Positions 1 to 61,007 of a stretch of 64,000 bases of DNA are shown here, piece after piece. Source of the DNA: Malacoraja senta (Eukaryota). The translations under genes were made by a program, and so were the position numbers. The stretch spans positions 808,001 through 872,000 of the forward strand of contig CM075993.1 of assembly GCA_038087875.1 (NCBI GenBank), read 5' to 3'. Within the stretch, counting starts at the first letter, position 1. The number at the start of each line of letters is the position of its first letter. The notes under the pieces were generated by a model. That model was not told where the DNA came from. It searched no databases and saw only the letters and a program-made list of their open reading frames with translations.

Positions 1-449
1 TGCAATGTCCTTAGATCCTTTTGTGTTTCCATTTCTCATTCTTCTTTGTCCGTATAGTGACCTTCAAAGCCCACAGTAGTGGATTCCTGTGAAAGCGTGT
101 TCCAAAACCTACTGACTCCAGATCAGCTCTTGTAGTCTGAATGGGAGCAAATGTATAGAAAGAAGAGTGAGAAGAGGCAATGACAGAGAAGGGTCACCAC
201 CCGATATGTCACCTATTCCTTCTCTCCAGAGATGCTGTCTGACCCGCTGAGTTACTCTAGCTTTTTTTGTATATCTTCGGTTCAAACCAACATCTGGTTC
301 CTTCCTACATGACTGATCTGTTCTGTTCCTTGAGAATGAGGAACTTCCTTCCTCTCTGGCTTTGTGGGTTCTGAGGTGACCCATGAGACCAATGAGGGAA
401 CCACAGAGCCTACCACAGATGGGTCTAAGTGTCGTTAAATATTGTAATT

Positions 450-2685: not shown

Positions 2686-3169
2686 GTAAGGCCACAACTG
2701 TCTACCCCATCCCAAAGGCTGGCAGTGATGGCACAGAGAGGGGTGGTGGGCAGGGAGGTCCCACCATTAAAGTACGCTGCAGAGTGTCAAATCAGGGTAG
2801 GATACAAAGTGCCCTTGGTTGATCCTGGTTTAAACCAAAGATAGACACAAAATGCTGGCGTAACTCAGTGGGACAGGGAACATCTCTGGAGAGAAGGAAT
2901 GGGTGATGTTTCGAGTCCAGACTGAGGTGATACAAGGTGTCTTCTTTACATTGCCTTTTCCTGGATTCTTGTCAATATGGGCGAAGAAACATCAGGCCAA
3001 CAACTGTCCTGTTAATATTAATAAATAATAACTTAATTTCCAGATTTGATATTTTTGGATCAAGCCCTACATCAGACAAAGATCTTGGGTTGAGAATCAC
3101 ATTCACCACCATCTGGGATCAGAAATTTCTATCCTGAATGGTGAAACTTATTTTGAGACAGTGACCTAG

Positions 3170-4635: not shown

Positions 4636-4808
4636 GGACAATTCAGCCAATCACAACCCGGCACCTAAAGGCAAGAACCAATGATGACAGCAGAGCAAAC
4701 AGCAGACCAATCCTATACACGGTTGTGACTCCTCCTGCTTTGGGGCAACTGATCACAGTTGACACAGGGAATGTGACCAGGATCGTTTCCAGCTTCACTG
4801 AAGAAGAC
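4636..4808 (+). CDS. CSPG4: CSPG4 internal exon
   Basis: Acceptor cccag and donor gtgagt at 4809. 173 nt, phase 1 to 0. Reads GTIQPITTRHLKART...ILYTVVTPPALGQLITV...SSFTEED. Confidence 0.9.
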
Positions 4809-7166: not shown

Positions 7167-7389
7167 ATGAGCACCATTACCTGATCTGTCAGATTATTGT
7201 GAAACTCATTCACACACTGCTCACTGAGCAATTCTCTTCAAGGTTCCTTAAACTGTCCAGGTCCTAGATGATAAAATGTCTATGCTAAGCCACCTCTCAA
7301 AGAACAGCTGCAGGGTAATGCATAAAAGTAAAAAATCTCAGTTAACGCTCCTGCACTTGTGTCTGTGTTTGACCAATCAATTAAAGACT

Positions 7390-7617
7390 TAGTGGACACT
7401 GTGTAAAATCATGAGGGGAACAGATAGAGTGAATGCATTGTCTTTTTCCCAGGATAGCGAATCAAGAACCAGAGGACATAGATTTAAGTTGAGAGGGGAA
7501 AGATTTAATTGGAACCTAATGGGTGGTGGTGGGTCAATCATGGAACGAGCTACCATTGGAGGTAGCTGAAGCAGGTACTGAAATAGCATTTAAAATACAT
7601 TTGAATGGGTACATGAG
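7390..7617 (+). mobile_element. Older CR1 3' fragment, left half of the host interrupted by the young CR1; it resumes at 10818-10935
   Basis: CR1 ORF2 C-terminal signature (aaccagaggacatagatttaag..). After the insertion it continues with gtttagagggatatgggcc...cctgtttccgtgttgtatgactgtgact. Confidence 0.75.
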
Positions 7618-13659: not shown

Positions 13660-15503
13660 GCCTTACTCTGCTTCAAGGTCAAAGTGCCACAATTGACCAG
13701 TCTGCACTGGATGCCTCCAACCTTCTGGCCTCAGTGCCCAGGTCCAGCCGTTCCCGCTACGAGGTGGTGTTTGAGGTGACCGCTCAGCCTGTCCATGGGT
13801 TTCTCTCGTTGGCCGGTGTCAGGAGGGTACGCCGCTTCACTCAGTCTGACTTGTTGGTGTCCACACTCGAGTACACACACTCCCGGTCAGGGGCACTGGA
13901 GGACAGCTTCACCTTCCGAGCTCGCTTGGGTCCAAGGAGAAAGCGGCTGTCACGGCCTGGAGATGACAGAATGGCCATAGTTATTTCTGAGCGTTTTAAC
14001 ATCACGGCGGTGCCGGTGAAAGGGTATCCGCCACGGATTGTCACCACGGGACTAGCGCTCCACGCTCCGCAAGGCTCCCGCTTGGTGTTGTCTCCTGACC
14101 ACATACGCTCAGTAGACCCAGACAACATGCCAGAAGAAATCCAGTATGTAATTGTCGCAGGGCCAGACAATGGCTTCTTTGTGCATCTGGCTGACAGCAA
14201 CACGGCCATAACACAGTTCACACAGGCGGATGTCAATGCTGGCACTGTGCTGTTCCAAGCAGTGGGCCCACCAGCCACCAGCACTGTCCACTTCACAGTC
14301 TCCGATGGGACACACTCAGCGGCCATGGGGTCTGTCACTGTTGAGGTTGTGCCAGCCACTGTCAGCGTGATCCACAACAAAGAGGCTGTGCTACTGCAGG
14401 GGGATCCAGCAACACCCATAACCAGAGAGCAGCTTGTGGTAGAGACTGGGGCAAACGGAGGAACACTCTACAGAATAACCCAGCTGCCAATGCACGGCCA
14501 GGTGACGATGAACCAGGTTGTGGTGACGGAGTTCTTGCAGAAGCAGATTGACAGTGGAGAAGTGAAGTACCGGCTGACGGATTTATCTGTTTACCAGGAC
14601 AGCTTCCAGGTTTGGGCGCTGAGCCGTAAGGGCAACATGTCAGGCACGGTGAACATCACAGTGCGGCCACTAGTGAGAGTGGCCCCACATCTGCAGTGGC
14701 CCAAAGGTACCACTGTTTTGATCGACACGGATGTTTTGGATGCAAGTGAACTGGGCAATAAGACCCAAAGCGTTCCCACCTTCCACATCACCCAACAGCC
14801 CAGAGCTGGGAAACTCATCAAGGTGCACAGACAGAATGGTACACAAAGTCTTCTGGGCAGTAACTTCACCCAGACTGACCTGGAAGACGGAAGCATTGCC
14901 ATGGAAGTATTTGATTCCGCTGAGGCTGGACTATTCCCAGAGTTGGATAGCTTCCAGTTTCTCTTAAAAGCTGATGGAGTGCCACCTGGCAGAGGAGCTT
15001 TAGAATTTCAGACTGTGCCATACATACCCAATCACCATTACAATGCCACACTGCTCAACCTCGCCTCTCTGAGTAGTACAAAGGCACCAGATTCCAGCAG
15101 TAGTCCATCAGCCCAGGATGGAGGAGAGATGGACATGGATTACCCAACGGTAACGTGGAGCCCCTTTGGAAGTAGTGAGCCTACATCGGGGGGTGTATCT
15201 ACAGAGTTCCAAGCAACAGCAGTCAATGAGGCAGCTCTCTCTTCTGCCGGCAACAATCTAATCACCATCATCATTGCTGTCATCCTGGTGGTTTTGCTGT
15301 TGCTGATTTTCATAGTGATTGTGATCTGCGTTACCAAACGCCACAAGATGGGAAAGCACAATGTGCAGGCCCCTCCGCCCAAGCCCAGGAATGGTGCAGT
15401 GGAGAAAGAGACCTTCAGGAAAACAGATCCTGTCCAGTCCATGCCTCTGGTGAATGTCCAGCCTCACAATGGTGCACAGGTACAGTGGCCACGGTATTCC
15501 TGA
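13660..15503 (+). CDS. CSPG4: CSPG4 last large coding exon: CSPG repeats, Ser/Thr-rich stalk, transmembrane helix and cytoplasmic tail
   Basis: Acceptor ttttttcttctccag. Contains ALDASNLLASVP, the TM segment LITIIIAVILVVLLLLIFIVIVICV, then KRHKMGKHNVQ..KPRNG..ETFRK as in NG2. The exact C-terminus is uncertain (see findings). Confidence 0.93.
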
Positions 15504-17080: not shown

Positions 17081-19180
17081 CATATCGTACCGTACCTCTC
17101 TGTAAATATTGCTGCATTATGACTGAATGCCTTTCAAAAGCTTCCCTTGTCTTGATGTAATGAAACAATCTGAGTGTTACATTCTTTGAACAAAATGCAT
17201 CTTACTGTTAGTTTGGCATCTGCACTCTTTGATGTCAGTGCATCCAGAGAGTGCAAGATGGCACTCTTGTGTATGGACTCAGAGACGTCTACTGTCTAAT
17301 ACTCTTGTATTTAGTATGATTGTGCCTAATGTATCACAGAATTGTCACTGAACTGATGCAAGGAAAGAATGTCACTGTACTTGGGTATAGGTGACAATAA
17401 AGTACAATTGAACCATTGCACTGGGGCCCAGCCCATGGTTGTGGACTTTGCTGTGTGAACGAGTGGGGGAGTGTGCCAGTGTAATCCCAGTCCTAGGTCT
17501 GCCTCACATCACGTTACAGCCCAGCAGAGACTTCTTCAGTTCTCGTTGTTCCTCAGGAGAAAGGTACGAACTTACCATTCATGCCCCGCCCACCGGAGTG
17601 AGGAGAGGTTGCCTCTTGGTGTTGATGTTGGCGTATTATTGTCATGTGTAGTGTACCAAGATACAGCGAAAACCCTTTGTTTATGTGCTATCTAATCAGA
17701 CAATACAAAGCATGAAATCCACCTGTAGAGCAAAATGTGGTTGAGGCAGATTGGGAAATCGGGACTGATCTCTATCGTATGGAAGGACCGTTCACAACTC
17801 TGGAAACAGAGGGGAGGAAGCTGCTGCTGAGTCTGCTGATGCGGGCCTTCAATCACACGACTGGGGCTGGGCCTCCAGCTCCAGCTCACAACCCCCCCCC
17901 CCCCACCCCCATTCTCTGTTCATTATCCTGCTCCATCCTGTGACCCCTCCCCACCCCACCATGTAAACACCCCCCACCCCAGCCTGTAACCACTCCCCAT
18001 GCTCTGTCCATTCCCCGGCTGCATTGTCTGACACCCCCCCCCATCCTCTGACCACCTTCCTACCCCATCGTGTATCGCCCTCTGCTCCAGCCTGTGACCC
18101 CCTGTATCGTGTGTGACCCCCCGGTGTGAACCCGGCTGTGGCTCGCTGCGGTCAGTGGGAACTCCCAGAAACATTGGAACTCTGCCCAGCCAGCTTTGCC
18201 TGCCGGGCAAATCAGAGCGACAATCACTCACTCTCCCTGTGAATATGTTAAAATTAACCCCGTTAAGACATGCGCTGCTGAGAGTTCAGTTTGATGAGGT
18301 TGAAAGGAATCTGCAATTCATCGTTCAGAAAAACAGCTAAAATTCAACTAAGCGCAGGAAAAACGTTTATATAAAACTTTCTCCTGTCCTCACCAGAAAT
18401 GTTATCAAGTGCAACGGATACTGATTGTGGTGATGATCAGCCATGATCACACTGAATGGCGGTGCTGGCTCGAAGGGCCAAATGGCCTACTCCTGCACCT
18501 ATTGTCTATTGTCTATTGATAACGCTGGCTGCCGGATGTGTGCGGTTCTGGTGAATCTTGTGTCTGGATCCTTGCAATGTTTGCGGGCTTCTCCCCGAGG
18601 CGTCTGGACCAACTGACGAGACTGGGTCCTTCACACCAACACTGAAGGTCCAGGCACACACAGGCATTGTCGGCAACTGTCAGACTCCAGTATTGTGTGT
18701 AAACCAGCATCTGCAGTTCATTCCTACTCATTCCTTCTTTCCAGAGATGCTGCATGTCCCTCTGAGTTACTCCAGCATGTTGTCTCTCTTAGACACATTA
18801 TCAGTGTTGGGCTGGATATGTTGTTCTTGTCCCAGTGTAGAGTTTAGTTTCGGTTATTGTCACGTGTACCGAGGTACAGTGACAAGCTTTTGTTGCGAAG
18901 TGCCGAATGGCCTACTCCTGCACCTATTTTCTATGTTTAACCAGTCAGCAGAAAGACAATACGTGATTCCAATTGAGCCGTTCACAATGTACAGTTAGTT
19001 ACTTGATAAGGGAATGGCGTTTAGTGCAAGGTAAAGCCAGCAAAGTCCGATCAAGGGAATTCCTAGGGTCACCAAATAGGTTCAGCACTACTCTCTGGTT
19101 GTGGTCGGATGATTCATTTGCCTGAGAGCGTCTCTCAGCAACTCTGTCAAAGAATCAAGCAACGTCCCAGTTGAAACAAG

Positions 19181-19407
19181 CAACTGCAGATGCTGGTTTA
19201 AACCGAAGATAGACACAAAATGCTGGAGTAACTCAGCGGGACAGGCAGCATCTGTGAGAGAAGGAACGGGTGACGTTTCGGGTCGAGACCCTTCTTGAGT
19301 CTGAAGAAGGGTCTCAAAAAGTCACCCTTTCCTTCTCTCCAGAGATGCTGCCTGTCCCGCTGAGTTACTCCAGCATTTTGTCTATCTTCAGTGTAAACCA
19401 GCATCCT
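19181..19407. mobile_element. Head-to-head fold-back pair of the Penelope-associated hammerhead-motif repeat
   Basis: The two ~110-bp arms are reverse complements, centred near 19297-19300. Confidence 0.75.
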
Positions 19408-20972
19408 ACACGTTTCTGGGTGTGACGGACAACAGCGCCAATCACTGCAGGCTCCACAGAGACAGTAGCTTCTCACTGTTCCAAGCGAAGCACAACCACT
19501 TTCCATGTGAATTTCGCTATTCCCGAAGAATGTAACTTGTCATCAAAATTCCCGCCAGGCTTTTGGATACAGTGTTGGCAGGAACGTGACAGGAAATAGC
19601 AGATGTTTTAACTGAATTCATTGCATCAGTTTCCATGAGTGAACTGGAAAGCGGCGGCATACAACAGGGCGTACAACACGGCTCCCGGTTGATGCTGTGG
19701 GTGACTACAAGCCCACATACACATGAACACCAGCTGTAAATACTCTGGAATCCCTGAGGCAATCAGGGAAATTCTGATCGATAATCCATTAATTCAAAAA
19801 AACTGCCTACAGGTTTGTTTTGTGGGCGGCTGACTTGTCTCCAATCGGATTTGATACATGACTCCGTGAAGTGCAAAGTCTGATTGTAACTTAATACCCG
19901 CCTGAGGAAAGCAAGGGTGTGGAAGGGTTAATCCAGTTTGCAAGGCAGCGGTTGAGGGCCATTGAGCCTTTCTTCATAAGTGGAATTAGGACATTCGGCC
20001 ATTCAATCATGGGTTAACTATCTTTCTCTCTCAACCCCATTCTCCTGCCTTCTCCCCATAACCCCCGACACCCGTACTATTCAAGAACCCAAGATAGACA
20101 CAACAAGCTGGAGTAACTCAGCGGGACAGGGTCTCGACTCGAAACGTCACCAATTCCTTTTCTCCAGCGATGCCTGTCCCGCTTAGTTACTCCAGCTTTT
20201 TGTGTCTATCTTCGGTTTAAATCAGCATCTGCACTTTCCCACATTAACCAAGAATCTATCCATATCTGCCTTAAAAAATATCAATTGACTGATTGCCAGA
20301 TTCGCCACCCTCTGGCTAAATACTTCTTGTTAACCCAGGTCTGGGGTTATTTTTGTCCCAGAATGATGGAATGGAAGCTTCTTCTCGTGGGGTGTGTAGC
20401 TATGAAGTGGGATGTTTGTCCGGCCTAATCTGTGTATACAATCACCCACGGCTCTACAAGCAGGGACAGAAAAAACAAGATTTCACAGACACCCATATAC
20501 GTCACAAACAAAACCCAACACGAACCATCACATTTCCAGTAACTCCTGTATTTTTTCTTCGGCACGTATTGCTGTTCGCCAAGATCACGCATAAACTGGA
20601 CAGTAACCACGCAATGTAGAAGAGTCGAGATAAACAGGGGTCCAGAACCCTGATGTAATCCACTCTCTTGTCAACTCTCAGACACGCGATTTCACAGTGC
20701 TTAGAAACATTTAAAAAATAGGTGCAGGAGTAGACCATTCGGCCCTTCGAGCCAGCACCGCCTTTCAATATGATCTTGGCTGATCATCCAAAATCAGTAC
20801 CCCGTTCTGGCTTCCCCCCCCCATATCCCTTGATTCCTTTAGCCCTAAGAGCTAAATCTAACTCTCTTGCTCCCACCCGCTTTGAGATAAGATTGATAGA
20901 CACAAAAAGCTGGAGTAACTCAGCGGGTCAGACAGCATCTCTGGAGAAAATGTGTAGGTGACGTTTCGGGTC

Positions 20973-21017
20973 GGGTGAGTCTGAAGAAGGGTCTCGAACC
21001 CGAAACGTCACCCACTC
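20973..21017 (+). ncRNA. Putative minimal type I hammerhead ribozyme (best-folding copy)
   Basis: Stem I GGGTGAGT/ACCCACTC (7 of 8 pairs, including one G-U). CTGAAGA at 20981-20987. Stem II GGGT/ACCC. GAAAC at 21002, GTC cleavage triplet at 21007-21009. Palindromic ACGT stem III. Confidence 0.55.
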
Positions 21018-21139
21018 CTTCTCTCCAGGGATGCTGCCTGACACGCTGAGTTCCTCCAGCATTTTGTGTCTGTCATATCGCTGATAGCCGATCACAGGCT
21101 CAACCAGGGCCCTTGGAGCCGATAGTTGAGGCACTGTCT

Positions 21140-21515: not shown

Positions 21516-23769
21516 CATGTTTGGTGTTGGTAAGGGCCCGCTGTGCCGAATGGCCTGTTACAGTCAGTAGTATCGCCTGCCTCAGTCACTCCCCGCGTTT
21601 CCTCCACGCGGTCCTGGACACTGGGACCAGGGGTGGGTGGCAGGTTTTTGCCCAACTCCCGCCGCGGGAGGCCACTCGGCCCACCCAGCCCATGCCAATA
21701 CAAGCCCGCAGAGGGGGAAGAATGGCCCTGAGCGTGCCTTTAAACTGTCTGCAAGGCGGGGCGCGCCTCGTTGTCCACACACTGACAGACACTGTGTTGT
21801 TTTTCCATTTCCTGTACACTCTGCTCTCGTTAACTCTCCCGTCCAGTTCAGCCTCCGCATTCTCTCCGACTCTCTGGCTGCGATCCTCGACCTCCCTCCC
21901 GGGACCTGAAGCCGGCTCCAGGAATGTCTACACATCGTCCCGGGGAAAGGGGCAGAGAGAGAGGGAGCGCCGCACTGTGTGTGTGTGTGTGGGGGGGGGG
22001 CAAGAGTAAGGAGATGCCAGTGGTTCACCCCCTCACCCCCGCCCCTCCCACAGTGCGGCGCTCCCTCACCGCCCCTCCCACAGTGCGGCGCTCCCTCATA
22101 GTCAAGAGTGGGTCCAGGATGGGGTAAAACTTGGCCGGCTATTGTCAGCACTGCCCGCTGACAGAATCAGGAACGAAACACAAAGTACTGACAGACTTAG
22201 TGTTTTGCTCCAGACTCCAGTATCGGCAGTTCCCCGTTTCTTGCTTTTACCACAATTTCGTGTTTTATTGCAGCTTTCTGGAATGTTCCTTTCCCGGAAT
22301 GTTAGACACATGATTAGACGGGGTAAAGGCCTGACAGTCACAGTGATACAGCATGGAAACAAGCCCCTTTGGCCCAACTTGCCCACACCGGCTAACATGT
22401 CCCAGCTACACTAGTCCATATCCCTCCAAACCTGTCCTATCCATGTACGTGTCTGTTTATTAAACGTTGTGATAGTCCAGCCCCAACTACCTCCTCTGGC
22501 AGCTCGTTCCATGTCCCCACCACCCTTTGTGTGAAAAAGTTACCCCTCAAATCCCTTATTAAATCTTTTCCCCTTCACCTTAAGCCCATGGCCTCTGGTT
22601 CTTGATGCCTCTACTCTGGGCAAGCGACTGTGCATCTACCCGATCTATTCCTCTCATGATTTTGTACACAAATGCTGGAAGGTCATTAACATTTTTCAGA
22701 GAATTGGTTTAGATTCCTTTGGGACAGTTACATAAACGTCTGGTTTTGTTCCGTGGTTCAGTGTAACTGCAACAGGCGGCACCATTCCACCCTTCGAATC
22801 CTGAGCAAATACATGGAGGGACTCAGTGGGTCGGGCAGCATCTGTGGGGAAATGGGACCTTCAGACTGATGGAGTCGAGGGGCAGAGAGCTGAAAAGAGG
22901 TGATAGACACAGAATGCTGGAGTAACTCAGCAGGACAGGCAGCATCTCTGGAGAGAAGTAATGGGCGACGTTTCAGGTCCAGAGGTGGGCGGGCTACAGA
23001 AGCGGGGAGCAGGCCTGGACCGATCAGCAATTGAACGTCCGGGTAGGTTGGAGGGGCTGAGTGGCCTGCTCCTAGTGTCTGGTTAGCTCGATGTTCCCGG
23101 TGTAAAGGGGGTGGACAGGGTGAATGCAGAGTCCTGTGTCCAGGGTAGAGGCATGTAGAACCAGAGGTCATGGGCTTAAGGTGAGGAGGGGAGGAGATTT
23201 AATAGGAAACTGAGGGGCAATCGTTTCACACATAAGGGTGGTGGGGTGTATGGAACGAGCTGTCAGAGGAGGCATGTAGGAGGGAACTGCAGATGCTAGT
23301 TGAAACCGAAGATAGACACAAAATGCTGGAGTAACTCAGCAGGTCAAGCAGCATCTGTGGAGAGATGGAATATGTAACGTTTTGGGTCGAGACAGTCTGA
23401 AGAAGGGTCTCAACCCATAACGTCACCTATTCCTCCAGCACTTTGTGTGTTTTTGTAAAGCGGTTCCTGCAGTTCCGTGTATCTGCAGCATCCTGTTTCC
23501 ACCCATTGACCTTCTGCGGAAAGTGCAGAACTCCGCGTTCCCGTCTCCAGCGTTATCACCCGGGCCCATGTTACATGTTCAGCTGATTAATGAACAAAAT
23601 AAAGAAGAGTTGTTTTGATTTAATTTCGTGGCGTCAGGCGATTTTAAAGGGGGGGGGGGGGGGGGGACGGCGCTGGAAGGAGCAGGGTAAATCCCGAGAG
23701 AGGCATACTCAGTTACTGTTGCCCTCAATACCCCTGGATACCGCAGTCTCCCCGGGAGCTGCCCCCCAC

Positions 23770-34804: not shown

Positions 34805-36235
34805 TTAACCATGTTAGTTGGAGGAACAGCACCTCATTTTCTGCTAGGGTAGCTTACTCTAATTTTAGATAACACCCCGCTCCCTCCACTGCCCCATCTG
34901 GACATGCACCTATTCCCCCACCTCCCACCCCCTCAACATACATTCCTTCCTCTAGCTTCACAATTCGTAACTCTTCAATCCTTTTGTCCCACACCTTCTG
35001 TCTGTCTCTGACCTCTACGTAACCATCTGTCTAGAAATCCTCCCTCAGCTGTATCAACCTATGACCTGTTACCCTTTGTCCTGCCTGGATTTGTTTAAGG
35101 CAAATCCCATCTAACCAACCTGATAGAATCTTTTAATGAAGTAACAAGGTCGATGAAGGAAACTTCTCTCTCCCAGATTTACCCCCCCTCCAACCCCTAC
35201 AATGAATCTGAAGATGGATCATGACCCGAAACGTCACCTATCCATGTTCTCCACAGATGCTGCCTGACCCACTGAGTTACTCCAGCACTCTGTGAAACGT
35301 CACCTATCCATGTTCTCCACAGATGCTGCCTGACCCGCTGAGTTACTCCAGCACTCTGTGAAACGTCACCTATCCATGTTCTCCACAGATGCTGCCTGAC
35401 CCGCTGAGTTACTCAGCACTCTGTGAAACGTCACCTATCCATGTTCTCCACAGATGCTGCCTGACCCGCTGAGTTACTCCAGCACTCTGTGAAACGTCAC
35501 CTATCCATGTTCTCCACAGATGCTGCCTGACCCGCTGAGTTACTCCAGCACTCTGTGAAACGTCACCTATCCATGTTCTCCACAGATGCTGCCTGATCCG
35601 AGTTACTCCAGCGCATTGTGTTGCCCTCAAATTCACTCGGACTATCTCTAACACTTCTCTTCCCTTTATTGATCTCTCTGTCTCCATCGCAGGAGACAGA
35701 CTATCGACTGACATCTACTGCAAACTTACTGACTCCCGCAGTTTCCTGGACTACACCTCCTCCCACTCTGCCTCTTGCAAAGAAGCTATCCCTACTCTTC
35801 ATCTCTGCTCCGAACTCAAACCAACCCGTCCCCAGGTACTTTCCCCTTTCAACCACAGGAGATGTAACACCTGTCCCTGTATGTCCCCCCTCACCTCTAT
35901 CCAGGGACTCCAGGAATCCTTCAGGTGAGACAAAGGTTCACGTGCACCTCCTCTAACCTCATCTTCTGCAGCTGGTGTTCCCAACGTGACCTCCTCTACA
36001 TTGGCGATACCAAGTGTAGACGCAGCGACCATTTCATCAAACACGTGCTCAGTCCGCCAAGGCCTGCTGAATCTCCTGGTTGCCAACCATTTTAACTCCT
36101 CTTCCCATTCTCATACTAACTTTCTGTCCTGGATGTCTCCATTGCCAGAGTGAGACTACATGCACCTCGTGTTCCCCTTGGGTAGCATCACAACCCAACA
36201 GTATGAACAATGAATTCTCCAATTTTAGGTAACTA
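34805..36235 (+). mobile_element. Penelope-like retroelement remnant in partial tandem: ORF end, 3' UTR, hammerhead motif, six 66-bp repeats, then RT C-terminus and GIY-YIG endonuclease
   Basis: LEEQHLIFC at about 34819. ctgaagatggatcatgacccgaaacgtc at about 35207-35235. KFTRTISNTSLPFIDLSVSIAGDRLSTDIYCK..FLDYTSSH at 35629 onward. LLYIGDTK at 35991. Confidence 0.8.
35228..35612 (+). repeat. Six tandem 66-bp copies of the PLE-associated repeat body
   Basis: Units start at 35228, 35294, 35360, 35425, 35491 and 35557. Confidence 0.95.
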
Positions 36236-40395: not shown

Positions 40396-40511
40396 CGGCC
40401 CACCTGTGGTGTCACTCCGGGAGCTGCTGTGGGCAGCATATTAGGTCTGCAGCTCGGACACTAACAGCGACAACCAGCCCCAGAGATGCAGCAATCCTGG
40501 CATCTCTCCGT

Positions 40512-40640
40512 CTGAAGAAGGGTCTCGACCCGAAACGTCACCCATTCCTTCTCTCCAGAGATGCTGCCTGTCCCGCTGAGCTACTCCAGCATTTTGTGTT
40601 TATCCTCGGTGTAAACCAGCATCTGCAGTTCCTTCCTACA
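40512..40640 (+). ncRNA. Penelope-associated repeat with an intact hammerhead core
   Basis: CTGAAGA-A-GGGTC-TC-GACCC-GAAAC-GTC at 40512-40539, followed by the conserved ~100-bp repeat body. Stem I is weak. Confidence 0.5.
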
Positions 40641-40789
40641 CATACTGGATAACTGTAAACCGGCTACATGTGACCAGGGCGATGAGAGAAATCACCTCTG
40701 GGGGTACATGTTTGTAGATACTTTCTCTTTAGCCACAAGTAGTCACAATATCAGACTAGTAATCCTTGGTTCAAATACTACTCACAACA

Positions 40790-41645: not shown

Positions 41646-43065
41646 CGAAGAAGATCATAAGAGATAGATCATAGGAGCAGAATTTGGCCTTTCGGCCCAT
41701 CAAGTCTACTCCGCCATTCAATCTATCTCTCCCTCCTAACCCCATTCTCCTGCCTTCTTCCCATAACCTCTGACACTCATACTAATGAAGAATTGATTTC
41801 TGCCTTTAAAATTATCCACTGCCTCCACAGTCTTCTGTGGCAAAGAATTCTACAGATTCACCACCCTGGTGTGAAACAATTAGACAAGTACATGGATAGG
41901 ACAGGTTTGGAGTGATATGGACCAAGAGCAGGCAGGTGGGACTAGTGTAGCTGGGACATGTTGGCCAGTGTGGGCAAGTGAGGTCGAAGGGCCTGTTTCC
42001 ACACCGTATCACTCTGACACAGGGAGAATTGACCAGGCTTGAGCACCCGGCAGCAACCTCAGGCACACGAGGGTCAACTGCTCACTAATATCAAGTGGCA
42101 GATTGGGAGAACAGCCCCACAGTCTCACTCCCAGCATCAAACTCCTGCAGCCAACACACCACACTCTGCCATCACATCGCTGTGTATTTCCCTGGGCCTG
42201 CAGTCAAGCACTGCGCTCAGTGTTATAAACAAACAACACACGAGAGATGTGGACTGGAACTCACTCACACGCTGTCCAGCCTCAGTCTTATCCATGTAAA
42301 GTGCTGCATCCCAACGTCCACACACACGCTCTGGATGCTGCTTCTGTGAATTCTGGTCACTGGCTCTGGGCATGTTTGGACAATGTAATCTGAGGCTTGT
42401 ATGAAGGCACCATCTGCTGGCACAGTGAGGAGCAGCAAGCACTGCAGGAGGGGGGATGGGTAATGGGGAACATTGATTGCAACACTGCTGGGCCTCTGCT
42501 TTCACAGGACACACACCAAACATGCAGCACGTGTGAGAGAGAACCAAGGTGATGAGAACCAGGCACTGAAGGAACTGACTGTCAGTCCAAAGTAGTCCTG
42601 TCGGAGGTAGACAAAAGTGCTGGAGAAACTCAGCGGGTGAGGCAGCATCTATGGAACGAGGAAATAGGCAAACGTTTCGAGCCGAAACCCTTGGTCCCAA
42701 GGATCTGGTGATCCAAAGGTGGACATGTTTGTAGGTTAATTGGCTTGGTATAAATGTAAACTGTCCCTAGTGTGTGTACACGATAGTGTAAGTGTGCGGG
42801 GATCGCTGGTTGGCGTGGACTCAGTGGCAGGCAAGGGGCCTGCTTCCACGCTGAATCTCTAAACTAAGTCTACATCTGTGGGGTGGCTCCTGAGAGAGGA
42901 TGATGTGGTTGATCAACCTGCAAGGTTCTCTGCTTTCTGCAATTGTTCTTGTGGATTAGAGGTTATCAAACACAAACCTACTAATAAAGATGGGAAAGAG
43001 AAATCAGGGAACAACAATCCTCAGTGGTTGGGAAATTATTGGAATCCATAATGTAGGATATCATA

Positions 43066-43555
43066 TGTAGGAAAGAACTGCAGATGCTGGTTTAAATCGA
43101 AGGTAAACACAAAATGCTGGAGTAACTCAGCGGGACAGGCAGCATCTCTGGAGAGAAGGAATGGGTGACGCTTTCGGGTCGAGACCCTTCTTCAGACTGG
43201 TTAGGGATAAGGGAAACAAGAGATATAGACGGTGATGTGGAGAGATAAAGAACAATGAATGAAAGATATGCAGAAAAGTTATGATGATAAAGGAATCAGG
43301 CCATTGTTAGCTGTTTGTAGGGTGAAAATGAGACGCTAGTGCGACTTGGGTGGGGGAGGGATAGAGAGAGAGGGAATGCCGGGGCTACCTGAAGTGAGAG
43401 AAATCAATATTCATACCACTGGGCTGTAAGCTGCCCTAGTGAAATATGAGACGCTGTTCCTCTAATTTGCATTTAGCCTCAACGCTGGCAATGGAGGAGG
43501 CTGAGGACAAAAAGATATGTGTAGGAATGGGAAGGAGAATGAAAGTGTCCAGCAG
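43066..43555 (-). mobile_element. Penelope-like 3' end: GIY-YIG C-terminus, ~190-nt UTR and hammerhead-motif repeat
   Basis: Minus strand reads KCKLEEQRLIFH*GSLQPSGMNIDFSHFR* (stop 43387-43385), then CTGAAGA at 43195-43189, GGGTC/GACCC and GAAA(G)CGTC. Confidence 0.8.
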
Positions 43556-45464
43556 CGGCTGTCTCGCCATCAGTCTGTCTCGTCCTTTTCCTGCTTTGTT
43601 TTAATTTTAATACGTGTTAAATGTATGTGTTAGTGTTCTTTAGCTTTGTTTTATGTCGGTGGTGGGGGTTGGGGGAAACTTTTTTCAATCTCTTACCTCG
43701 ACGGAGATGCGATTTTTTCCCGCATCATATCTCCGTCCGCACTGCGGCCTAACATCATGGAGCTGGCAGTCCCTGTCCGGGATCAACCTTGAAGCTCCAA
43801 CCGTGGGAGCCTGCGGAATTTAACATCGTGGAGCTCGCGGTCCATGGTTAGGGAGAGACTTCGGAGCTCCAGGCCGCATGAGCTTCGTCCGCCCTGACGC
43901 GGGAGCTTCGATTGCGCCAGCTGTGGGAGCTTCGATTGCGGATGGTTTGACTGCTCCTATCGCGGGAGAATAAGAGAAGGAAGAAGATAAATCTTTATTG
44001 CCTTCCATCACAGTGAGGAATGTGGGGAATCCACTGTGGTGGATATTTATGTTACTTTTATGTAGCTGTGTGTCTTGTTGCTTTTTATTTAGTATTGCTG
44101 TATGGTAACTCAAGTTTCACTGTACCTTAATTAGTACACGTGACAATAATAATAATAATAAACGTTATTTCGGACTCAAGGTCCAGACAAGGGACAACGT
44201 TACATAAAAAATACATTGCATATTAAAAACATCATAAAGTACATATAAAATCTTAGTATATCACTTTCAATTCAATTCAATTCCTTTATTGTCATCTTGC
44301 AAGCAACAGTTGTGCAGTGCAAAACGAAAAGACGTTTCCCAGGGAATACCGGAGCATCGCACATGAAGTTTAAAACATTTCACACATAATAATAATAATA
44401 ATAACAACACTAAAACAATCCAGTCCCTGATGGAACAGTATAAGTTAAAATAGATACAAACAACGTTAAAATACAGTAAGACCAATCATAAACATGTCCG
44501 GGGTGGCTGATTTGAGTGGCCAGTGCCAGTTATTGAAGTGGCCAGTGCCAGTTATTATAGTGTCCGTGCCAAGCCGCAGAATCAGGTGACTGTGAGTACA
44601 GAGTGGCTGTTTAGCAGCCTCACAGCATATGGCAGGAAGCTGTTTAGCAGTCTTGTAGTCCGGGCTTTGATGCTGCGATATCTCTTGCCTGATGGCAGGA
44701 GATCCAGGTGTATGTGGAGGGGGTGCATTTTGTCCTTGGCAATTTTTTGAGCTTTTTTCCGACAGCGGCTCAGGAACTTATAAAAGCATCATAAGTTATA
44801 TATTAAAAAAAACACAATTCATGAATTAAAATCCAGAATAAAAAGAATGATCAATGTCCTACAATGAGACAACGATACCAGTGTCTCCACAACTGGGAAT
44901 TGGTAGCGTGTAGTGCTAAACCTTATGTTTGTCAAGGCACAATAATTACATTTTTAGAGTCATTTATCCTGCAGATGAATTTATACATATGATTTCTTAG
45001 GGTAGCTTCTAAAGTACTGACTCCTGCAGCACAAACATGTTACTAGCACCACACCACCAGGTACAGGAGCCTGAAGACTGCAAGGACCAGGTTCAGGAAC
45101 AGCTACTTCCCCACAGCCATCAGGCTATTAAACCTGGCTCGGACATAACACAACTTTACTAGCCAATACTGTTATTTGCACTTTATCAGTATATTGACCA
45201 TTGTGTATATATTTATAGAATGCCTTGTAGTAAATGCCTACTATGTTCTGTTGTGCTCATGCAAAGCAAGAATGTCATTGTCCTACCAGGGACACATGAC
45301 AATAAACTCACTTGACTTGACTTGACTTGACTTGACCATCTAGGTTTCCCCAGCAGTGTTGTCTTTCCATAGTTCCACCACAGGGGGGCGCAATATGCTC
45401 TAAACAGCCACATCTTCACCTTTTGACCTTTGAAATTACCTTTGAACCTTTTTCTTTGCAAGGA

Positions 45465-46000: not shown

Positions 46001-49000
46001 CCCCCCCCCCTGTCCTTTAACCCCCGATCTCGGTCTGATTGCGTTGATTTCTTGTCAAGGCAACCGAGGTTCAGTGTAAACTCTGCCGTGAGTGCTCTCC
46101 AGGCAGGTCGTCACCTGCAGGAGTTACCTCGGTGAAAGTAAACAGTGCAGAACATAGTTTGACAGCTGCAGGAAAAGTGCAAGGGCAGCAACGAGGTTGA
46201 ACTTGTCCCTAGCCTCTGCAAGGACTGTCCAACAGTCTGATCACAGCTGTCATCCTATAATCTGGGGAGAAGCTGTTCTTTAATTAATGCATGTGCTTTC
46301 CCACCTTTGTATCTTCTGCAGAGTGGAAGAGGAGAGAAGGGAGTAACTGGCTGGTTTGTGTATCTGTCTGCGCTGCTTTCTCAACTCTTCAACACAGTTT
46401 TGGGCAGACCAGTTGCTATTCCTAGCTCTGATGCACGATACTTTCCACGGTGGGTCTGTAGCTGTTAGTAACAGCCGCTGACAGTATTGTGAATTTCCTT
46501 GGCCTCCTGAGGAAGTGGTGTTGTTGGTGTGCTTTCATGGATGTATTAAAGTGTTTAGACTGGACAAATGGTTGGTGATGTTTACACCTGGGATCTTGAG
46601 CTCTTGACCATCATTACTTTAGTACCATTGCTACAGACTGGGGTGTATGCTTCACTCTGATTCCTGAAGCTGATGACAGGTCCTTTGTTTTGCTGACATT
46701 GAGGGAGAGGTTGTTGTTTTGACACCGTGTCACCGTACAGAGAGGGGAGTAAGGAGCTGAGAACGCATCCTTGCGGAGCACCAGTGTGATAATTATAGTG
46801 GAGGATGTTTTGTTGCCTATTCTCATGTTTGCGATCTATGGATCAGGAAGTTGAGAATCACTGAGTTCCAGGTCCAGGCTCCTGGAGATGACTGGTTACA
46901 GTTGAAGGCAGAGCTGTAGTCAATAAATAGTCTGGTGTTGGTGTCCTTGTTATCCAGATGTTCTGGTGTGTATTATACAGCGCAGAGAGCCAGTTTGGTG
47001 CTTGCTGCCGTTTCCTGGTGTGAAATATTTCCAGTCTGCGTTGCTTGTGGAGTTTTGGGTCTCCTTGGTCTTTGCTTTTTATGAGAAGTTTGGCAGAGTA
47101 TTTTACTACAGTGTTGTGTTGCGTGTAAACCTAATTCTCATTTGCTTAATTAGTGTTTGCACTTTCAGTTTTTTACAAAGCATAAGACTTGGGGCACGAG
47201 TGAATCTCCAAACCTGCTCTGCCATTCACTATGGCAACAGCTGTCAGTTCCCTATAACTATTTCATGAATTTTCAGAACTTTATCTACTTCCTCTTTAAA
47301 TACTGAGAACCTTCTTGAGTGGAGAGTTGTGGAGGTTTGCATCCTCTGCGAGAAGTGGCTCTGTTTTGAATGACTTTCCTGATGTGGCAACTCAGTGCCT
47401 TCGTTTGAGGTTCTCATCGTGGAAATGCTGTTTCCCCCTATGTTTCAATATGAGCAAACCGCGCGCGCTCTTCTAAACTCCAAAGAATTTGGATCTCATT
47501 TCTTTAGCTGCCTTATGAAGCTAGACCTCTAGTGTTAGGAAGTAGTCCAGTGAATCTCTTTTAGAAACTACTTCCTATCTCTAGACCAACCCTTTTGTAA
47601 TAAAGACCAATTTGCCAGATAGTGCTGTTTGTTTCTTTGACACGTACTGCTTTGAACGTTTCAGTGATTAAATTGCCTGAATCTACTGTTGTATGTCAAG
47701 TTTTCTGCTTATCTAATTAAAGATTAATGCTACTTTAAATTGGATCTCTGTTCCAAAAGCTTACTTCCTGAACAGGTTAGCATACCAGATGGCATGTCAC
47801 ATGGTTAGTGTTTTATGTAGGAGCATAATGTTAGTTGACAGTGTGGTGGAATGTTGCTGTTCTAGTGTAGGTGTGCTTGTGGGAATCTTATTCCTCATTG
47901 TAACTGGATACCTATTGCGATAGTGCTGAGTGTAGCAAGGATGTTCACTTGGCCGCTGTTAATAAGTCTAGTTCCTCTGGTGCTGAAATGTTGGTATCCT
48001 AGTTTGTTATCAATAGCCTCTGGGAAATTAACTAAATGGACCACTGCTTTAGATGACTGTGGTGTTTGAGACAAACCCTTGTGTTTGACTGAAGATAGAC
48101 ACAAAATGCTGGAGTAACTCAGCGGGACAGGCAGCATCTTTGGATAGAAGGAATGAGTGACGTTTCTGGTTGAGACCCATCCTCAGACTTTTTTTAAATC
48201 GTGTTGCCTGAATGTTTTAGGTTGCTACTTTCATTCTCTCCCACCTTCCATATATCCCTAGCTCTCATCTTGCCCATTTGAGCTCAGAGACTCCTTTCAG
48301 ACTGCTCTCTGATCTGCAGTTTCCTTTTATTTGGTGTGGCATTGTTGGTTTGTGCAGTGGTGCCACATGCTGGCAGACATGCTCGCGTTATTGCTTCGTG
48401 CTTGCTTTTTGGGTGTTTATTCCTTGTGCTTCAGCAACTGCATTACTTGAATGTTGCAAATGTCTTTGCTAAACATTCTAGTAAATAGCTGTCTGTCCCC
48501 CTGAGTTACTCCAGCTTTTTGTGTCTATCTTCTGTTCAAACCAGCATCTGCCATTCCTTTCGACACATTGTAAATAGTCGGCATTGGGACTCTTTCTGCC
48601 TCAACTCTGCCATTGTAGTGGCTAGAACACAGTGAAACTACTGAGAATGAATCTTCAGTAAATGCTGCCTGCATGATGGGTGGTTGTGGAGACAGGATAA
48701 AAGGTTGTGCTAGAAGGTTACAATTTGTGGCAGTCTCGAACTAGAGTGGTAGAGGTTGTAGATCTGAGAGGTTGTGTCAAGTAGCTTTGTTGACTAACTG
48801 CATGCATTTTGTAGACGGCCTGCAGTACTTCAGTGATGAAAGAAGGGCACGGGTAGGGAGATGACGTTTAAGTCGAGGAGCGAGTTACTTGCTGCTAATC
48901 CAGTATTTGTGGCTGCACTAGTACCTTTAGAATGGAGATGAGGAAGAATTTCTTCAGCTAAAGGGTGAATTTATTGCCACGGGCGGCTGTGGGGGCCAGG

Positions 49001-49096: not shown

Positions 49097-52062
49097 AAGC
49101 CCTGTTACACTGTGCGAGCTGACCCACGAGGTACACCGAGTGAAAGACTCGTGGTTGCGTACGAGACTACAAGTTTATGATGCAGAGTTTAACCGAGTTC
49201 CCACGGGTATGTCTAAGTTTGCCGTTTACTTCTCATTTCTGCGATGTTCCAAGTTCGTCTCCCGAGTGTACCAAGTTCCTCTCCCGTTAATCTTGAGGCA
49301 ACAATGTATATCGACGTGTTGAAAAATCATATCATGTTGAAAAAATGATGTCATGCTTTTTTTTTACATACTATAAAAAGCCTGCCTTGTTTAAATTGGC
49401 TGTTGAATCTCCTGTTGTATCTCCTGTTGCCTCTCCTCCTCCTGTATGACTATAGCCTCCATGGCAGGTTTTTTGTAAGGCTCTGCTCTTCCCTTTCGTC
49501 GAACTTTTCTGGGAGCCATCTCTAGCAAGCTTCTTATCAAAAAGATTCACCAGCAATGAGGTGAAACGCCCAAGATTGACTCGGGTCACATGCTGATGTT
49601 GAAGTCACCTTTTTTTTACTCACCTTTTTTTTTCCTCTGTCCAGCTGACGAGTTCAGAGTGCACATGAGAGTCACCGGAGTCATGTCTGATTGCCTGGGC
49701 AGCCTACCAGCTTCCACAGTCTACATTGTACAAAGCATCATATTGTGATGCATCAATACCTGTTTTGGGAGCAGCTTTGCCCTAGAGCGCAGTATATATT
49801 ACAGAGACTTGCAAATGTAGTGCAGTCTATTACACAGGCCAGCTTTTCCCCTATCAACTCAATCTACACTTCGACCTGCTTCGGGAAGCAGCCAACGTAC
49901 CATTCCTTCCTCTCCTTTCACCCCGTGAGCAGATAATACAAACGCTCACATACATGTACTACCTGATTCAGGGACAGCTCCTTCCTCACTGTCATTAGAT
50001 TGCTGAAACTGAAGTTTTTCGGTGTGTGAAGAAGGGTCTCGACCCGAAACGTCACCCATTCTTTCACTCCAGAGATGCTGCCTGTCTCGCTGAGTCCAGC
50101 ATTTTGTGCCTATCTTCTCATAACTGAAGTCCTGATCTCCTGATATACCCCATTACAGCTCTTGGACAAAAAAACTGGAAACTTTGTTGTGTTGTATCTG
50201 CACGCTGGTATTTTTTTCTCTTTGTGCTAGCTATTTATTGCACTTATGTACGGCTTTATTTCAAAACTCGCAAACATTCAGGTGACAAAATAACCCAATA
50301 TCAATACCATGTCCGCCTCATCCAGTTTATGGGGGGGGGGGGGGGTAGGATCATGATATGAATCTGTGCCAAGTTGTAAAACTCCAGCCGGGATACCGTC
50401 GTCTCCGGGTTCGTGATCATACCAGTAATATTGTGAGGATCGACATACTGTTGGCACTCGCAATATTACTGGCATTATCACTAATCAATTATTACATCTC
50501 AAAATTTGTGTAACAATATTTCATGTTCCCCGGGAACATTAGCACTTTAACACTGCACTTTGGGATCTTATTTGCCATCGGGTAAAAGATTGTGATTATG
50601 GTCATGTTAAGAATTAAAAGTCATAAAATCAATGTGTGAAAATGATTCTTATTTTTCAAAGTCTCTCATAGGAAACAATGAGCGTATAGAGCCCAGGGAG
50701 AGGGGGAGAAAGGGACGTACACTCACAGAGGCAGAGTCTCTCAGCCTGTGTGAGAGGGAGGGAGGGAGAGAGAGACACACACACACGGGTGGATGTGAAA
50801 TCTCACCTACCCGTTTCAGTGACAGGCACCCGCAGCCAGTGAATGAAGACACCCCCATCTGTCTCTCCCTCCACTCTCCACCCCCTCTCCTCCACCCCAC
50901 CCCCATCACCCCCCCCTCCCCCAATTTGGAAATGTCATCCCATCACCCATTCCTTCTCTCCAGAGATGCTGCCTGCCCGCTGTTAAAGAGTTCCCACTTG
51001 CAGCAGCATAACAGGCCAGTAAACACAATACATAGATAATATACTAAACAAAGAAAATATATATTAAAAAATCCAGTATTATTGCAAAAATCCCAAAGTC
51101 CTTAGTGCAACCAAGGCAGTTTGTAGTTCATAGTTTAGTTAGCATTTGTAGTGTTCAAGAGCCCGATGGTTGTTGGGAAGAAGCTGTTCTTGAACCTGGA
51201 GGTCATGGTTTTCAGATTCTTATACCTTCTGCTCAGCAGGAATGAAATGAGAGCATGGCCAGGGTAGTGTGGGTCCATGACAATGCTGGCTGCCTTTTTG
51301 AGGCAGCACCTCATATAGAACCCTTTGATTCAGTAAAGTTCAGTAAAGAGATCGGGAATCTGGCATCATGGCTTGAGAATAAAACCCAGCCTTTAACATC
51401 CGCATAATGAAAGAGTTGGTGTTGTCCTACGGAACAGGGGTACAGGAGAGGTGAACACAACCCTGTCTTCTTCAAAAGCACTGGTAGAGATGGCTTCTGG
51501 ACGTGACTGGCAAACCTCAGATTAGGCTGCCATGAAGTGTCATAAAATGTTCTCACGCTGTTCCTCAATACTGGTTTGTCTTAAGGTTGTGAGCTTAGTC
51601 CCAAATACACAAAATCTATATATAAACTTCAAGCAATTTTTTCTTTTCAACCCACTCTGTCACCTTATCAATAACTTTTACTTTGTTAAGCAGAATTTGT
51701 CTTTAAAAAGTCTAAGTAACTGATATTTCTGTCCCTGATTATTGTTTCTAAAAACAGTTCCCACGGTAGAATCACGAGTCACAAAGGTAAACGCACGGGC
51801 CACTACGTTCTTACAACGAGTTGAAATGTTTCAAATTTTAACCTCAAGAGTACATTTTACTCGTGGAAAAGTTCAAACATGTTTGAACTTTTTCAAGAGT
51901 TAACAAGTTTCACGGGTACCTGCCGTTAGCGCCACGAGTCGCTAAGTTGCGTCCACGAGTTCCGACGTTCCCGCTACGTTAATTGTACGTGATTACCACG
52001 AGTTAAATTTGTTTTAAACTCAGGGTACCTCGTGGGTCAGCTCGCACAGTGTAACAGGGGTT
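49097..52062. mobile_element. Non-autonomous PIF/Harbinger-type DNA transposon with ~38-bp TIRs and TAA target-site duplication
   Basis: Left end aagccctgttacactgtgcgagctgacccacgaggtac; right end gtacctcgtgggtcagctcgcacagtgtaacaggggtt (one mismatch). TAA at 49094-49096 and 52063-52065. Confidence 0.8.
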
Positions 52063-52985: not shown

Positions 52986-54056
52986 TTGTGGTAACTATGG
53001 AGTGTACACAACGTGGCTTGTGATACATCTGCCCTCTGCATACAGTTGCCCCACGAACAACCAATGGAAGCATTGAACAGGAAGCAATGTCCGGTTGTAT
53101 TTAAGGAATATGTTCATTGCTTCAGTATATTTCTGACTTTCTAATAAACTCCGTGCAGAGTATCCAGCACTAATGCCAAATTAATTAACAGTTGGCAAGG
53201 ACATTGTGTCTACAAAGAGTTACACTTTCTTGCCTTGCATAGCACCCATGCTACTTTGGAGATGATTTGTTTGAATAAACTCCGCCGTACTTTCTGTCCC
53301 AGAGACTGGAGCCAACGGAGAAATGTGGCCCAGCTTGCCTGAGGCTGCCGGCTGTGGGTGTGTCTAGTTGCAGGAATGCTGCAGGTTGAAGCTTGCTGGT
53401 ACAACTGCTGTACTCTTCCCTTTCTGAACGTGGCTTCACTTTTCAGGGCAAGCCAACTCTAAAGGCATTTAACATAACCGTGCTGGAGATCCAAATCCGC
53501 CTTGTGGGTGGCTGATGAAAGGGTTCCTGTGGTTGTATTCCGTATTGGGTTTGATAGTGAATTATTAATCCTTAGTTATTAATCAACTACCGTGGTACAG
53601 GATCCTTCCCTCAGAATAAATGCAGCTGAAGCTCATTATCTTGAATTATTTTAACACACAGCGGGTGTTACAGACGGGCATCCTGATCGCCCTTTGGAAG
53701 GTGATGGTGAGCCACGACCTAGAACATCTGCATTCCTTTGAAACTCTCTCATGGTACTGAACAATTGCAGTGCTAATGGAGGAATTGTGATATACGTACT
53801 GCATTTCCACGTTGAGATGGTGTGTTGCGAGTCGGGTAGTGTTCCCATACACGTTGGCTCTGAATGATTGAGGTGCTGACGTAACGTACACAAGGTACTC
53901 CAGTTGTGGTCTCGCCAACCTCTTGAACAGTTGTAACACAATGTTCCAACTCTTATACTTAATTGCCTGACCAATGAAGGAAAGCACGTCAAATTCTGTA
54001 AGCTATCTTATCCTTCACCAAGCTGTCTGTGCTGCTGCAAGTCAGAATTTAATTGT

Positions 54057-54282
54057 GAAGATAGACACAAAACTCTGGAGTAACTCGGTGGGACAGGCAG
54101 CATCTCTGGAGCGAAGGATTGGTTGACACTTCGGGTCAGGACCCTTCTTTGGACCCGAACGTTCTCGACTTGAAACAACACCTATTTCTTCTCTCCAGAG
54201 ATGCTGACTGTTCCGCTGAGTTACTCTGGTGTTTTGTGTCTATCTTTGGTTTAAATCAGTATCTGCAGTTCCTTTCTACATA
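54057..54282. mobile_element. Degenerate fold-back pair of the PLE hammerhead repeat in SNX1 intron 1
   Basis: gaagatagacacaaaactctggagtaactc... is mirrored by ...gagttactctggtgttttgtgtctatcttt. Confidence 0.7.
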
Positions 54283-60190: not shown

Positions 60191-61007
60191 GTAAGTAAGT
60201 TTGATGCTACGGTCATGAGGGGTTTGTGTCCGGGTGCAGTGATTCACACAAGGACAAGGGCTGGAGTAACAGCAGGTCAGGCAGCATTCTCGGCAGAACA
60301 TGCATAAATGACGTTTCAGGCCAGGATCCTGCTTCACACTGATTGTAGGGTCCTGATCTGAAACGTCATTATCCGTGTTCTTCAGAGCTGCTTCTCCGCT
60401 TACTAAGTTACTCCAGCACTTTGTGTCCTTTTGTGTAAACTAGCACCACCAGTTCCTTGTGTCTACAGTGATTCACCTTTTGGTCAGTGTTCTGCTCAGT
60501 ACATTTTGGTTCTGGGCGACAGCATGGTATGTGTGTGATTATTATCTGGCAGTGTCTGCCATTACATTTCCCTGAAGTTATTCTCTTGAATCCTGCCAGC
60601 ATTTGACTGTGTGAGGTCTCCAAGTAGTGATGGTGGCACATGAGATGAGCAGTCATGATTCCACTGTGGGTGAATCTGACCACGCTGGCTGGGCTTGGAG
60701 TCTGGCCACTTGCCAATGACTGGGGAAACGCTATCTTCCTGGCCTCTCAGCACAGCATTGCGAAAGCAGAGAGTCATCTCTTGGCATTCAGCTGTGGACC
60801 ACGAGGAGGAAGTAGGTTTGGGGAAGAGGAACAAGTGCTGTTTGGAGTGAACTTTCAGAGTTGCATATTGTAGTGAGTTATCTGGGTTTAGAGAAGCGAC
60901 CAGTCGAGGGATTGTTTAGTGCATTGTTTACAGATTAGTTGCATTAATTTGTGCTGTTAGTTTTCTGTGTTGGTGACGTACACATTGCCACAGCGCTTGA
61001 CACGTAG

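Follow-up and report, generated by a model that had tools for sequence, protein, structure and literature searches.

A dispersed repeat of Malacoraja senta, very probably the pseudo-LTR end of a Penelope-like element with a minimal hammerhead motif, and a telomeric family with junctions at its predicted hammerhead cut site

We propose that two families of Penelope-like elements (PLEs) in the genome of Malacoraja senta probably represent both fates of a hammerhead in these elements. In a young, two-ORF telomeric family the RNA would be cut in vivo and the cut end would be the RT start that builds partial tandems, whereas an abundant dispersed family would be copied from uncut RNA, its short stubs mapping the RNA 5' end. 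The dispersed repeat, which had been noticed in a stretch of 64,000 nucleotides (contig CM075993.1, positions 808,001 to 872,000; hereafter the window), is very probably the pseudo-LTR (pLTR) end of an endonuclease-bearing PLE that carries the published minimal hammerhead, its short copies being decaying products, likely of uncut RNA, and the motif of its 20973 copy being predicted to be locked in a hairpin. If the proposed contrast is true, the genome itself would document that a PLE hammerhead cleaves in vivo, and a vertebrate would have a telomere-targeted retrotransposon.

Within the window, nhmmer found a match to the dispersed repeat of about 130 bp at all 15 places named in the initial annotation, on both strands. 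When the 40501-40625 copy was used as query, 34 matches were obtained at E<=10 and 31 at E<0.01. The density had been underestimated as one copy per 4-5 kb; the actual figures are about one piece per 2 kb for the window and 3.3 pieces per 10 kb for the whole genome. All of the named copies are present, but many of them lie on the minus strand or belong to head-to-head pairs (Table 1). The longer copy at 43063-43589 links the repeat to a PLE inside the window itself.

Table 1. Coordinates of the features described (window positions unless a contig of the assembly, G000, is given)
Feature	Position	Strand	Remarks
5'-truncated copy with tail	186..296	+	
5'-truncated copy with tail	2821..2922	-	
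Head-to-head pair	19174..19405	both	
Head-to-head pair	20087..20231	both	
Fold-back left arm	20895..20975	-	copy of pLTR end, 5'-truncated within stem II
Junction piece GGGTGA	20973..20978	+	reverse complement of 21008-21013; origin of the apparent long stem I
Fold-back right arm	20978..21076	+	pLTR end starting at the hammerhead, no tail (nhmmer)
Minimal hammerhead motif	20981..21009	+	CUGAAGA 20981-20987, extra A 20988, predicted cut after 21009
Stems of the same motif	20981..21009	+	stem II 20989-20992/20998-21001, GAAA 21002-21005, palindromic ACGU 21005-21008
Two truncated pieces	22806..22983	-	
Head-to-head pair	23290..23441	both	
Copy with damaged stem II, then five 66-nt tandem units	35206..35623	+	units begin at GAAAC, without CUGANGA
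Decayed PLE coding remnant	35593..36230	+	RT (late part), linker and GIY-YIG; tblastn E 8e-20 to 9e-6
Solo copy, motif intact (C3 at 40512), 35-nt tail	40502..40643	+	nhmmer, descriptor
Truncated copy	42608..42701	-	similar to younger subfamily
Longer 5'-truncated copy	43063..43589	-	GIY-YIG frame end 43589-43391, 3' UTR, motif at 43197, tail
Solo short copy	48084..48188	-	
Solo short copy	50023..50117	+	flanking 9-nt direct repeat, 11 and 6 nt off the ends
Head-to-head pair	54056..54265	both	
Head-to-head pair, older	60245..60446	both	11-nt direct repeat near the ends
Telomeric PLE loci	G000:C17:1-10000 (L049), C15:13.71 Mb, many small contigs		C17 copy at the very contig start
Telomeric PLE loci	G000:C14:18.24-18.41 Mb		L047, L048, L211-L227, L262

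The 66-nt array at 35206-35623 is derived from the portion of the repeat behind GAAAC, and comparable arrays are found at loci L007 and L054, the latter with 50-nt tandem units that include the core. The window also contains host exons, namely Cadherin_3 repeats plus a membrane segment at 13578-15503 (+), which we take to be CSPG4-like, and a sorting nexin of the SH3-PX-BAR type at about 37889-39500 (-), presumably SNX33/18-like. Other features are a CR1/L2-type RT remnant (RVT_1) at 7634-9767 (-), a repeat-derived frame that matches ALKBH8_N at 40866-41781 (-), and a C-rich 30-nt minisatellite that adjoins a 200-N gap at 30600-34200.

The proposal that the repeat is a ribozyme-bearing PLE terminal repeat is borne out by its linkage to RT and GIY-YIG sequences and by the direct pLTRs found on units of 3.8-4 kb. 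The 30 best genomic matches have a common 3' end and extend upstream to varying degrees, some of them entering a GIY-YIG frame. When loci were picked by the GIY-YIG protein alone, 26 of 30 had the repeat 100-125 nt behind the stop and on the same strand, and picking by the N-terminal part led to a younger subfamily whose units have long RT plus endonuclease frames (926 and 792 aa) and end in the repeat. At L159, L162 and L164 the 3.8-4 kb units are bounded by direct repeats, which measure 248 bp, 302 bp and 1.2 kb. The Pfam matches of the 926-aa frame (L152) are below cut-off for both RVT_1 (E 5e-6) and GIY-YIG (E 1e-3), and the GIY-YIG domain of another locus, L033, scores above it with 30.5 bits; a PDB search with the RT-endonuclease sequence gave no match. 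In the alignment the protein shows a DKG motif and a C-X4-CxxC linker, and it has 32% identity over 737 aa to that of the telomeric family. As expected for endonuclease-bearing (EN+) PLEs, the RT is followed by a C-terminal GIY-YIG in one frame, the pseudo-LTRs come from partial tandems, and both a tail of 30-40 bp and an inverted 5'-truncated copy are present. The linker fits the CX2-5CxxC mark of the Neptune clade, to which the element may belong, and also that of Nematis (Craig et al. 2021, PMC8557442). The family is also found in contigs of other organisms from four sequencing runs, which are uninformative on starts, ends and expression. In the young dispersed family, at about 1260 of L159, the sequence AAG/GTATG resembles a splice donor and runs across the first likely ATG, some 165 nt behind the core.

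For the hammerhead motif we use a scale on which 0 is the first C of CUGA and the predicted cut falls after +27. The core described for the 20973 copy is indeed there: 20981-21009 reads CTGAAGA, A, GGGT, CTCGA, ACCC, GAAA, CG, TC. Stem II is present too, but it has 4 bp and a 4-nt loop (5 nt in the 20981 copy) and not the 5 bp first assigned, because 5 bp with a 2-nt loop would be unable to close. The loose pattern CTGANGA..GAAAC occurs four times in the window against 1.16 expected. A strict minimal-hammerhead descriptor that we built was run on 1.36 Mb (205 stretches comprising the window and fetched sequence, many of them chosen for the dispersed family) and gave 65 matches, all in the dispersed family, and none in reversed sequence; the only window copies that pass it fully are those at 20981 and 40512. 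The motif has the published features of a minimal type I PLE hammerhead (CUGANGA, an extra nucleotide, a G-C-closed stem II, GAAA, a palindromic 15.2-16.2 and UH) except for a stem I of 4-6 bp, which is reduced to 2 bp in 55 of the 65 descriptor matches, in agreement with the caveat of the initial annotation. We also looked for an older subfamily whose stem I has 5 bp, but too few copies were obtained. In a tandem dimer the double-hammerhead fold reaches -4.0 kcal/mol versus a minimum of -18.8 kcal/mol.

Rfam covariance models, which had been proposed as a check, gave no hammerhead hit in the window or in 40480-40580, but the test is insensitive, since the scan also missed the complete hammerhead of the telomeric family. 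Conservation was examined in the 132 of 265 mapped copies that span +3..+82, which were clustered on the downstream part alone into three to four subfamilies. The subfamily majorities differ at 0 of 11 core, 1 of 8 stem II, 2 of 4 loop and 12 of 56 downstream positions; the stem II difference, U-A to U-G, keeps the pairing, and the invariance of the core with respect to the downstream part is not significant (0/11 vs 12/56, p=0.09). Mismatch within subfamilies is 0.081 in the core versus 0.078 downstream (p=0.81; CpG 0.219), so that the core is no better preserved than the remainder. Core conservation across genomic copies had been proposed as a test of the ribozyme, but it would mislead, as it gauges neutral decay after insertion and not selection. 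CUGANGA, GAAA and UH are all kept in 50 of the 132 copies. As for covariation in the stems, there were no two-sided changes in 14 aligned copies, the subfamilies being too close, and the changes seen were one-sided only, U-A to U-G and G-C to G-U.

The 7/8-bp stem I that had singled out the 20973 copy pairs on paper, but it is a by-product of a head-to-head junction, where GGGTGA departs from the upstream majority sequence of the family. Furthermore, GGGTGA favours a register that engulfs the cleavage triplet, and its pairing as the hammerhead stem I has a probability of only about 0.01, the shortest construct included. The two arms of this copy form a hairpin (-127.7 kcal/mol for 20890-21080, z=-15). 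Folding gave probabilities of 0.00 for both stem II and stem I in the native context and in the 20960-21030 construct, and in the 20970-21020 construct stem II forms (0.79) without the hammerhead stem I (0.01). We predict that the motif of this copy is buried in the long hairpin and inactive, and the use of 20960-21030 as a cleavage construct would mislead because it folds as a hairpin. No target-site duplication was found for this pair, the longest common word being 6 nt.

To describe the copies genome-wide we sampled 80 evenly spaced 10-kb stretches with round coordinates, 798,600 bases in all, which contained 267 pieces; by extrapolation this corresponds to about 0.65 million pieces and roughly 4% of the genome. 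No piece was found in the reversed sequence of the first 40 stretches. Solo pieces account for 162 of the total, pieces paired head-to-head for 96 and tandem ones for 9. The 3' ends of the 265 copies that could be mapped fall at +79..105 (143 copies), at +115..135 (85) or elsewhere (37), and the two main classes, about 35 nt apart, are the PLE tail. The 5' ends accumulate at the front edge of the motif (111 at -6..+5), with 8 at +24..32 and 29 upstream of -30, and they are sparse upstream of -6. This peak is about 12 nt wide, has side peaks near +10, +21 and +37, and is common to solo (63/162) and head-to-head (44/94) copies; in the young subfamily 6 of 23 short copies start at -6..+5. Pairs are oriented head-to-head in 48 cases and tail-to-tail in 4, and in 30 of the 46 head-to-head pairs that could be classified one arm carries the tail and the other lacks it. 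A common upstream flank was seen in none of 80 short solo copies. In a set of 55 well-kept short solo copies, for which flanks were also drawn from other loci and the window, 20 have flanking direct repeats of at least 7 nt versus 1.4 in shuffled pairs, and many of these repeats abut the 5' junction. Target-site duplications together with unshared flanks indicate that the short copies are whole insertions, and the pieces decay neutrally thereafter. We also considered whether the 5' ends derive from a 3' splice site, given the pyrimidine tract and a CAG ending at -2 and the D. virilis intron that ends at helix I; this idea was dropped in view of the many target-site duplications that lie directly at the 5' junction and of the unshared flanks.

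Copies of this kind are readily mis-annotated as SINEs, MITEs or miRNAs when they form hairpins. It is hardly credible, however, that MITE-like DNA elements or miRNA precursors underlie the hairpin copies: in spite of the long near-perfect hairpins and some weak Rfam miRNA matches, the arms are unequal in the PLE fashion, most copies are single arms, the Rfam scores are far under gathering, and the linkage to RT and endonuclease, with sequence running on into GIY-YIG, refutes this origin. The possibility that the minus strand is a tRNA-like Pol III unit, the short copies being SINE-like copies of an antisense transcript, is very unlikely. Judged by the A and B box patterns, the 40512 copy (40509-40640, minus) matches the A box with 0 mismatches and the B box with 1; the two boxes are separated by 52 nt, and the B box covers part of stem II. 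An equally good arrangement was obtained in 0-1 of 1500 shuffles, although the test was post hoc. Such box-like matches are confined to the older subfamily. The young autonomous subfamily, in contrast, has 2+2 mismatches (about 5-7% of shuffles are equal) and yet produces similar short copies. Moreover, the 5' peak is also present in tailed copies (29/85), which reach about 38 nt past the would-be start, no tRNA was detected by ARAGORN or Rfam, and none of 70 inspected flanks had poly(A) at the would-be 3' end. An antisense template has nonetheless been proposed for head-to-head PLE structures (PMC3846280).

If the dispersed motif were cut before copying, copies should carry a footprint at the cut. 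Only 8 of 265 copies have their 5' end near it, and of the 8 copies that diverge from the element, among 124 whose front half is intact, none breaks off at the cut and all continue beyond it. There is no excess of base changes at the cut either, as exact-pattern counts of transversions were 125 at +28 and 166 at the control position +30, and in an unbiased count only 2 deletions among 491 spanning copies could begin at +28. Among 30 loci of a set that was enriched for such breaks, one (L276) is a tandem junction precisely at the cut and five have deletions of 8-12 nt that begin at it, and cleavage may occur rarely in the dispersed family. Since copies begin at the front edge of the motif and not at the cut site, the templates were likely uncut RNA. 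The same data bear on the suggestion that the repeat is a retrozyme-like non-autonomous derivative, actively self-cleaving as a dimer and spread through cleaved or circular RNA. Very high copy number, the status of short copies as whole insertions with target-site duplications, the 50 copies that keep the three core elements and the L276 junction would all suit this, but we consider it very unlikely: solo and head-to-head pieces predominate over the few in tandem, the units end off the cut site, and the window's own tandem array lacks CUGANGA after the first unit. Retrozymes are defined by tandem units with a hammerhead in each (bioRxiv 10.64898/2026.07.22.740005).

We propose instead that the RT of the element would start at one of two internal sites of the tail, by analogy with the in vitro precedent of an anole element. 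When starting in the upstream pLTR, it would copy about 100 or 135 nt before the template ends at the RNA 5' end, and this strong-stop-like product would be inserted alone or after fold-back. There is about an even chance that the RNA 5' end is a start site at a TCAGT just ahead of the core, which we take to be initiator-like; an RNA starting there would explain why stem I has only 2 bp. One subfamily has TCCGT in place of TCAGT. The 5' junctions, on the other hand, showed no excess of a cap-G, and therefore a stall, a fold-back or a nuclease cut at the TCAG-T-CTGA palindrome is a near-equal rival for this step. The motif itself would probably be kept in master lineages as a slow ribozyme, dependent on a dimer or a protein, and inserted copies would not be shaped by it.

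With the PLE origin unchanged, the whole 5' pile-up could also result from copying or integration, through RT stalling or fold-back at the palindrome or at the edge of a C-rich tract, or through an endonuclease cut. We hold this to be a real possibility, if a less likely one. It agrees with a peak that is broad, has side peaks and is shared by solo and head-to-head copies, and palindromes at inverted junctions are known in rotifer PLEs (PMC3846280). Against it, ends become sharply fewer upstream of -6, and a stall caused by structure would be expected where RT first meets the motif (+30, its 3' border) and not once the motif has been passed.

The footprint that is missing in the dispersed family was found in a second one, located outside the window. 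Searching the genome for GIY-YIG returned mostly this other PLE family, in near-identical copies: five of them differ by 3-7 bases in 2277. The family sits in and beside CCCTAA arrays and had no match in the 80 evenly spaced 10-kb stretches. It has a first open frame of about 597 aa with a weak match to GDSL/SGNH esterases (Pfam E 0.004; best PDB 4c1b, E 0.03) and, behind it, a 759-aa frame with RT plus GIY-YIG. A related sequence, P0001, is 94% identical, and teleost relatives are about 48% identical. We found no description of the family in a literature search that covered article listings and passages of some papers. Its hammerhead is a complete type I (L049:1978-2036) with stems I, II and III of 6, 4 and 5 bp; it is the minimum-energy fold of a 76-nt stretch, weaker in a 250-nt context, and its core has 81 exact occurrences.

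Junctions were followed in 50 of these occurrences, taken from 40 stretches that cover different contigs plus 7 earlier loci. In 33 the element reads through, in 16 it breaks exactly after GUC, and in one it breaks at +4 with a 4-nt microhomology. The breaks represent 9 distinct landing sites, 8 of them exactly at the cut, with a left microhomology of <=1 nt, and one junction, present in two copies, begins exactly at the cut. On the sequence evidence, these junctions look like the genomic footprint of in vivo cleavage, and the simplest reading would be that the RNA is cut in vivo and used from its cut 3' end; alternatively, the fold could fix the RT start at that same base without cleavage. 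The other main 3' break of the family is an internal CCTAACC, where it joins telomere repeats with 5 distinct continuations, in an orientation that would fit priming on the G-rich strand. On C14, tandem deleted units of the family, of about 1.56 kb and 1.44 kb and each ending at the cut, occupy G000:C14:18.284-18.312 and 18.349-18.359 Mb; these arrays are retrozyme-like satellites, and the strand flips near 18.313 Mb.

Taken by itself, the window's repeat is an already-known motif in a known element class. Minimal hammerheads have been described in fish PLEs (Neptune, Poseidon, Xena), mostly as single motifs and opposite-strand pairs and with low in vitro activity (Cervera and De la Pena, PMC4209133). 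The present motif shares with them CUGANGA, the extra nucleotide before stem II, G10.1-C11.1, the palindromic 15.2-16.2, the absence of a loop III, the pLTR position and the occurrence as mostly single dispersed motifs plus opposite-strand pairs. Stem II, in contrast, is 4 bp long here and 7-8 bp long in the schistosome motifs; for stem I the corresponding lengths are 2 bp and 4-5 bp, although D. virilis also has 2 bp; the copy number is far over the 4,000-9,000 of coelacanth and Xenopus, with pieces lacking an intact core included in our count. The DKG RT, the C-X4-CxxC linker, the C-terminal GIY-YIG, 5' truncation, partial tandems, the inverted 5' copy and the 30-40 bp tail are all as in EN+ PLEs of the Neptune/Nematis type (PMC8557442). 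The dispersed family departs from these in that about nine tenths of its pieces do not exceed the pLTR end in length and about four tenths start within 12 nt of the core. Poseidon PAc of Anolis is copied mainly from uncut RNA, with RT starting at two sites inside the tail (Frangieh et al. 2024, PMC11167929), and the dispersed family resembles it in its two 3' end positions, its probably uncut template and the lack of ends at the cut; PAc belongs to a different clade, however, and its ORF starts in stem II, whereas the first likely ATG lies well behind the core here. Internal pLTR promoters have been reported for D. virilis and suggested for rotifers. Non-LTR retrozymes (bioRxiv 10.64898/2026.07.22.740005) are likewise PLE-derived, carry a type I hammerhead and have been reported in one chondrichthyan, but they consist of hammerhead-bearing tandem units and the dispersed family of solo or inverted ones.

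Finally, the telomeric family resembles Terminons, Athena and Coprina (PMC6431247, PMC8557442) in its head-to-tail arrays within telomeric repeats, the orientation expected for G-rich-strand priming, the hammerhead and the GDSL esterase-like ORF. It differs from them in having the RT fused to GIY-YIG, in its vertebrate host, and in that the telomere is joined at an internal CCTAACC about 2.5 kb from the hammerhead, with further ends at the hammerhead cut. PMC4209133, PMC8557442 and PMC11167929 all describe the in vivo role of PLE hammerheads as open. Comparing the positions of copy ends with the predicted cut site amounts to a cleavage test from genome sequence alone; its outcome is negative in the dispersed family, whereas the telomeric one gives a sharply positive signal. 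The window's repeat alone is a minor result, and the main lead is the telomeric family, a young and intact element for biochemistry. The contrast between two families within one genome makes the role of PLE hammerheads testable.
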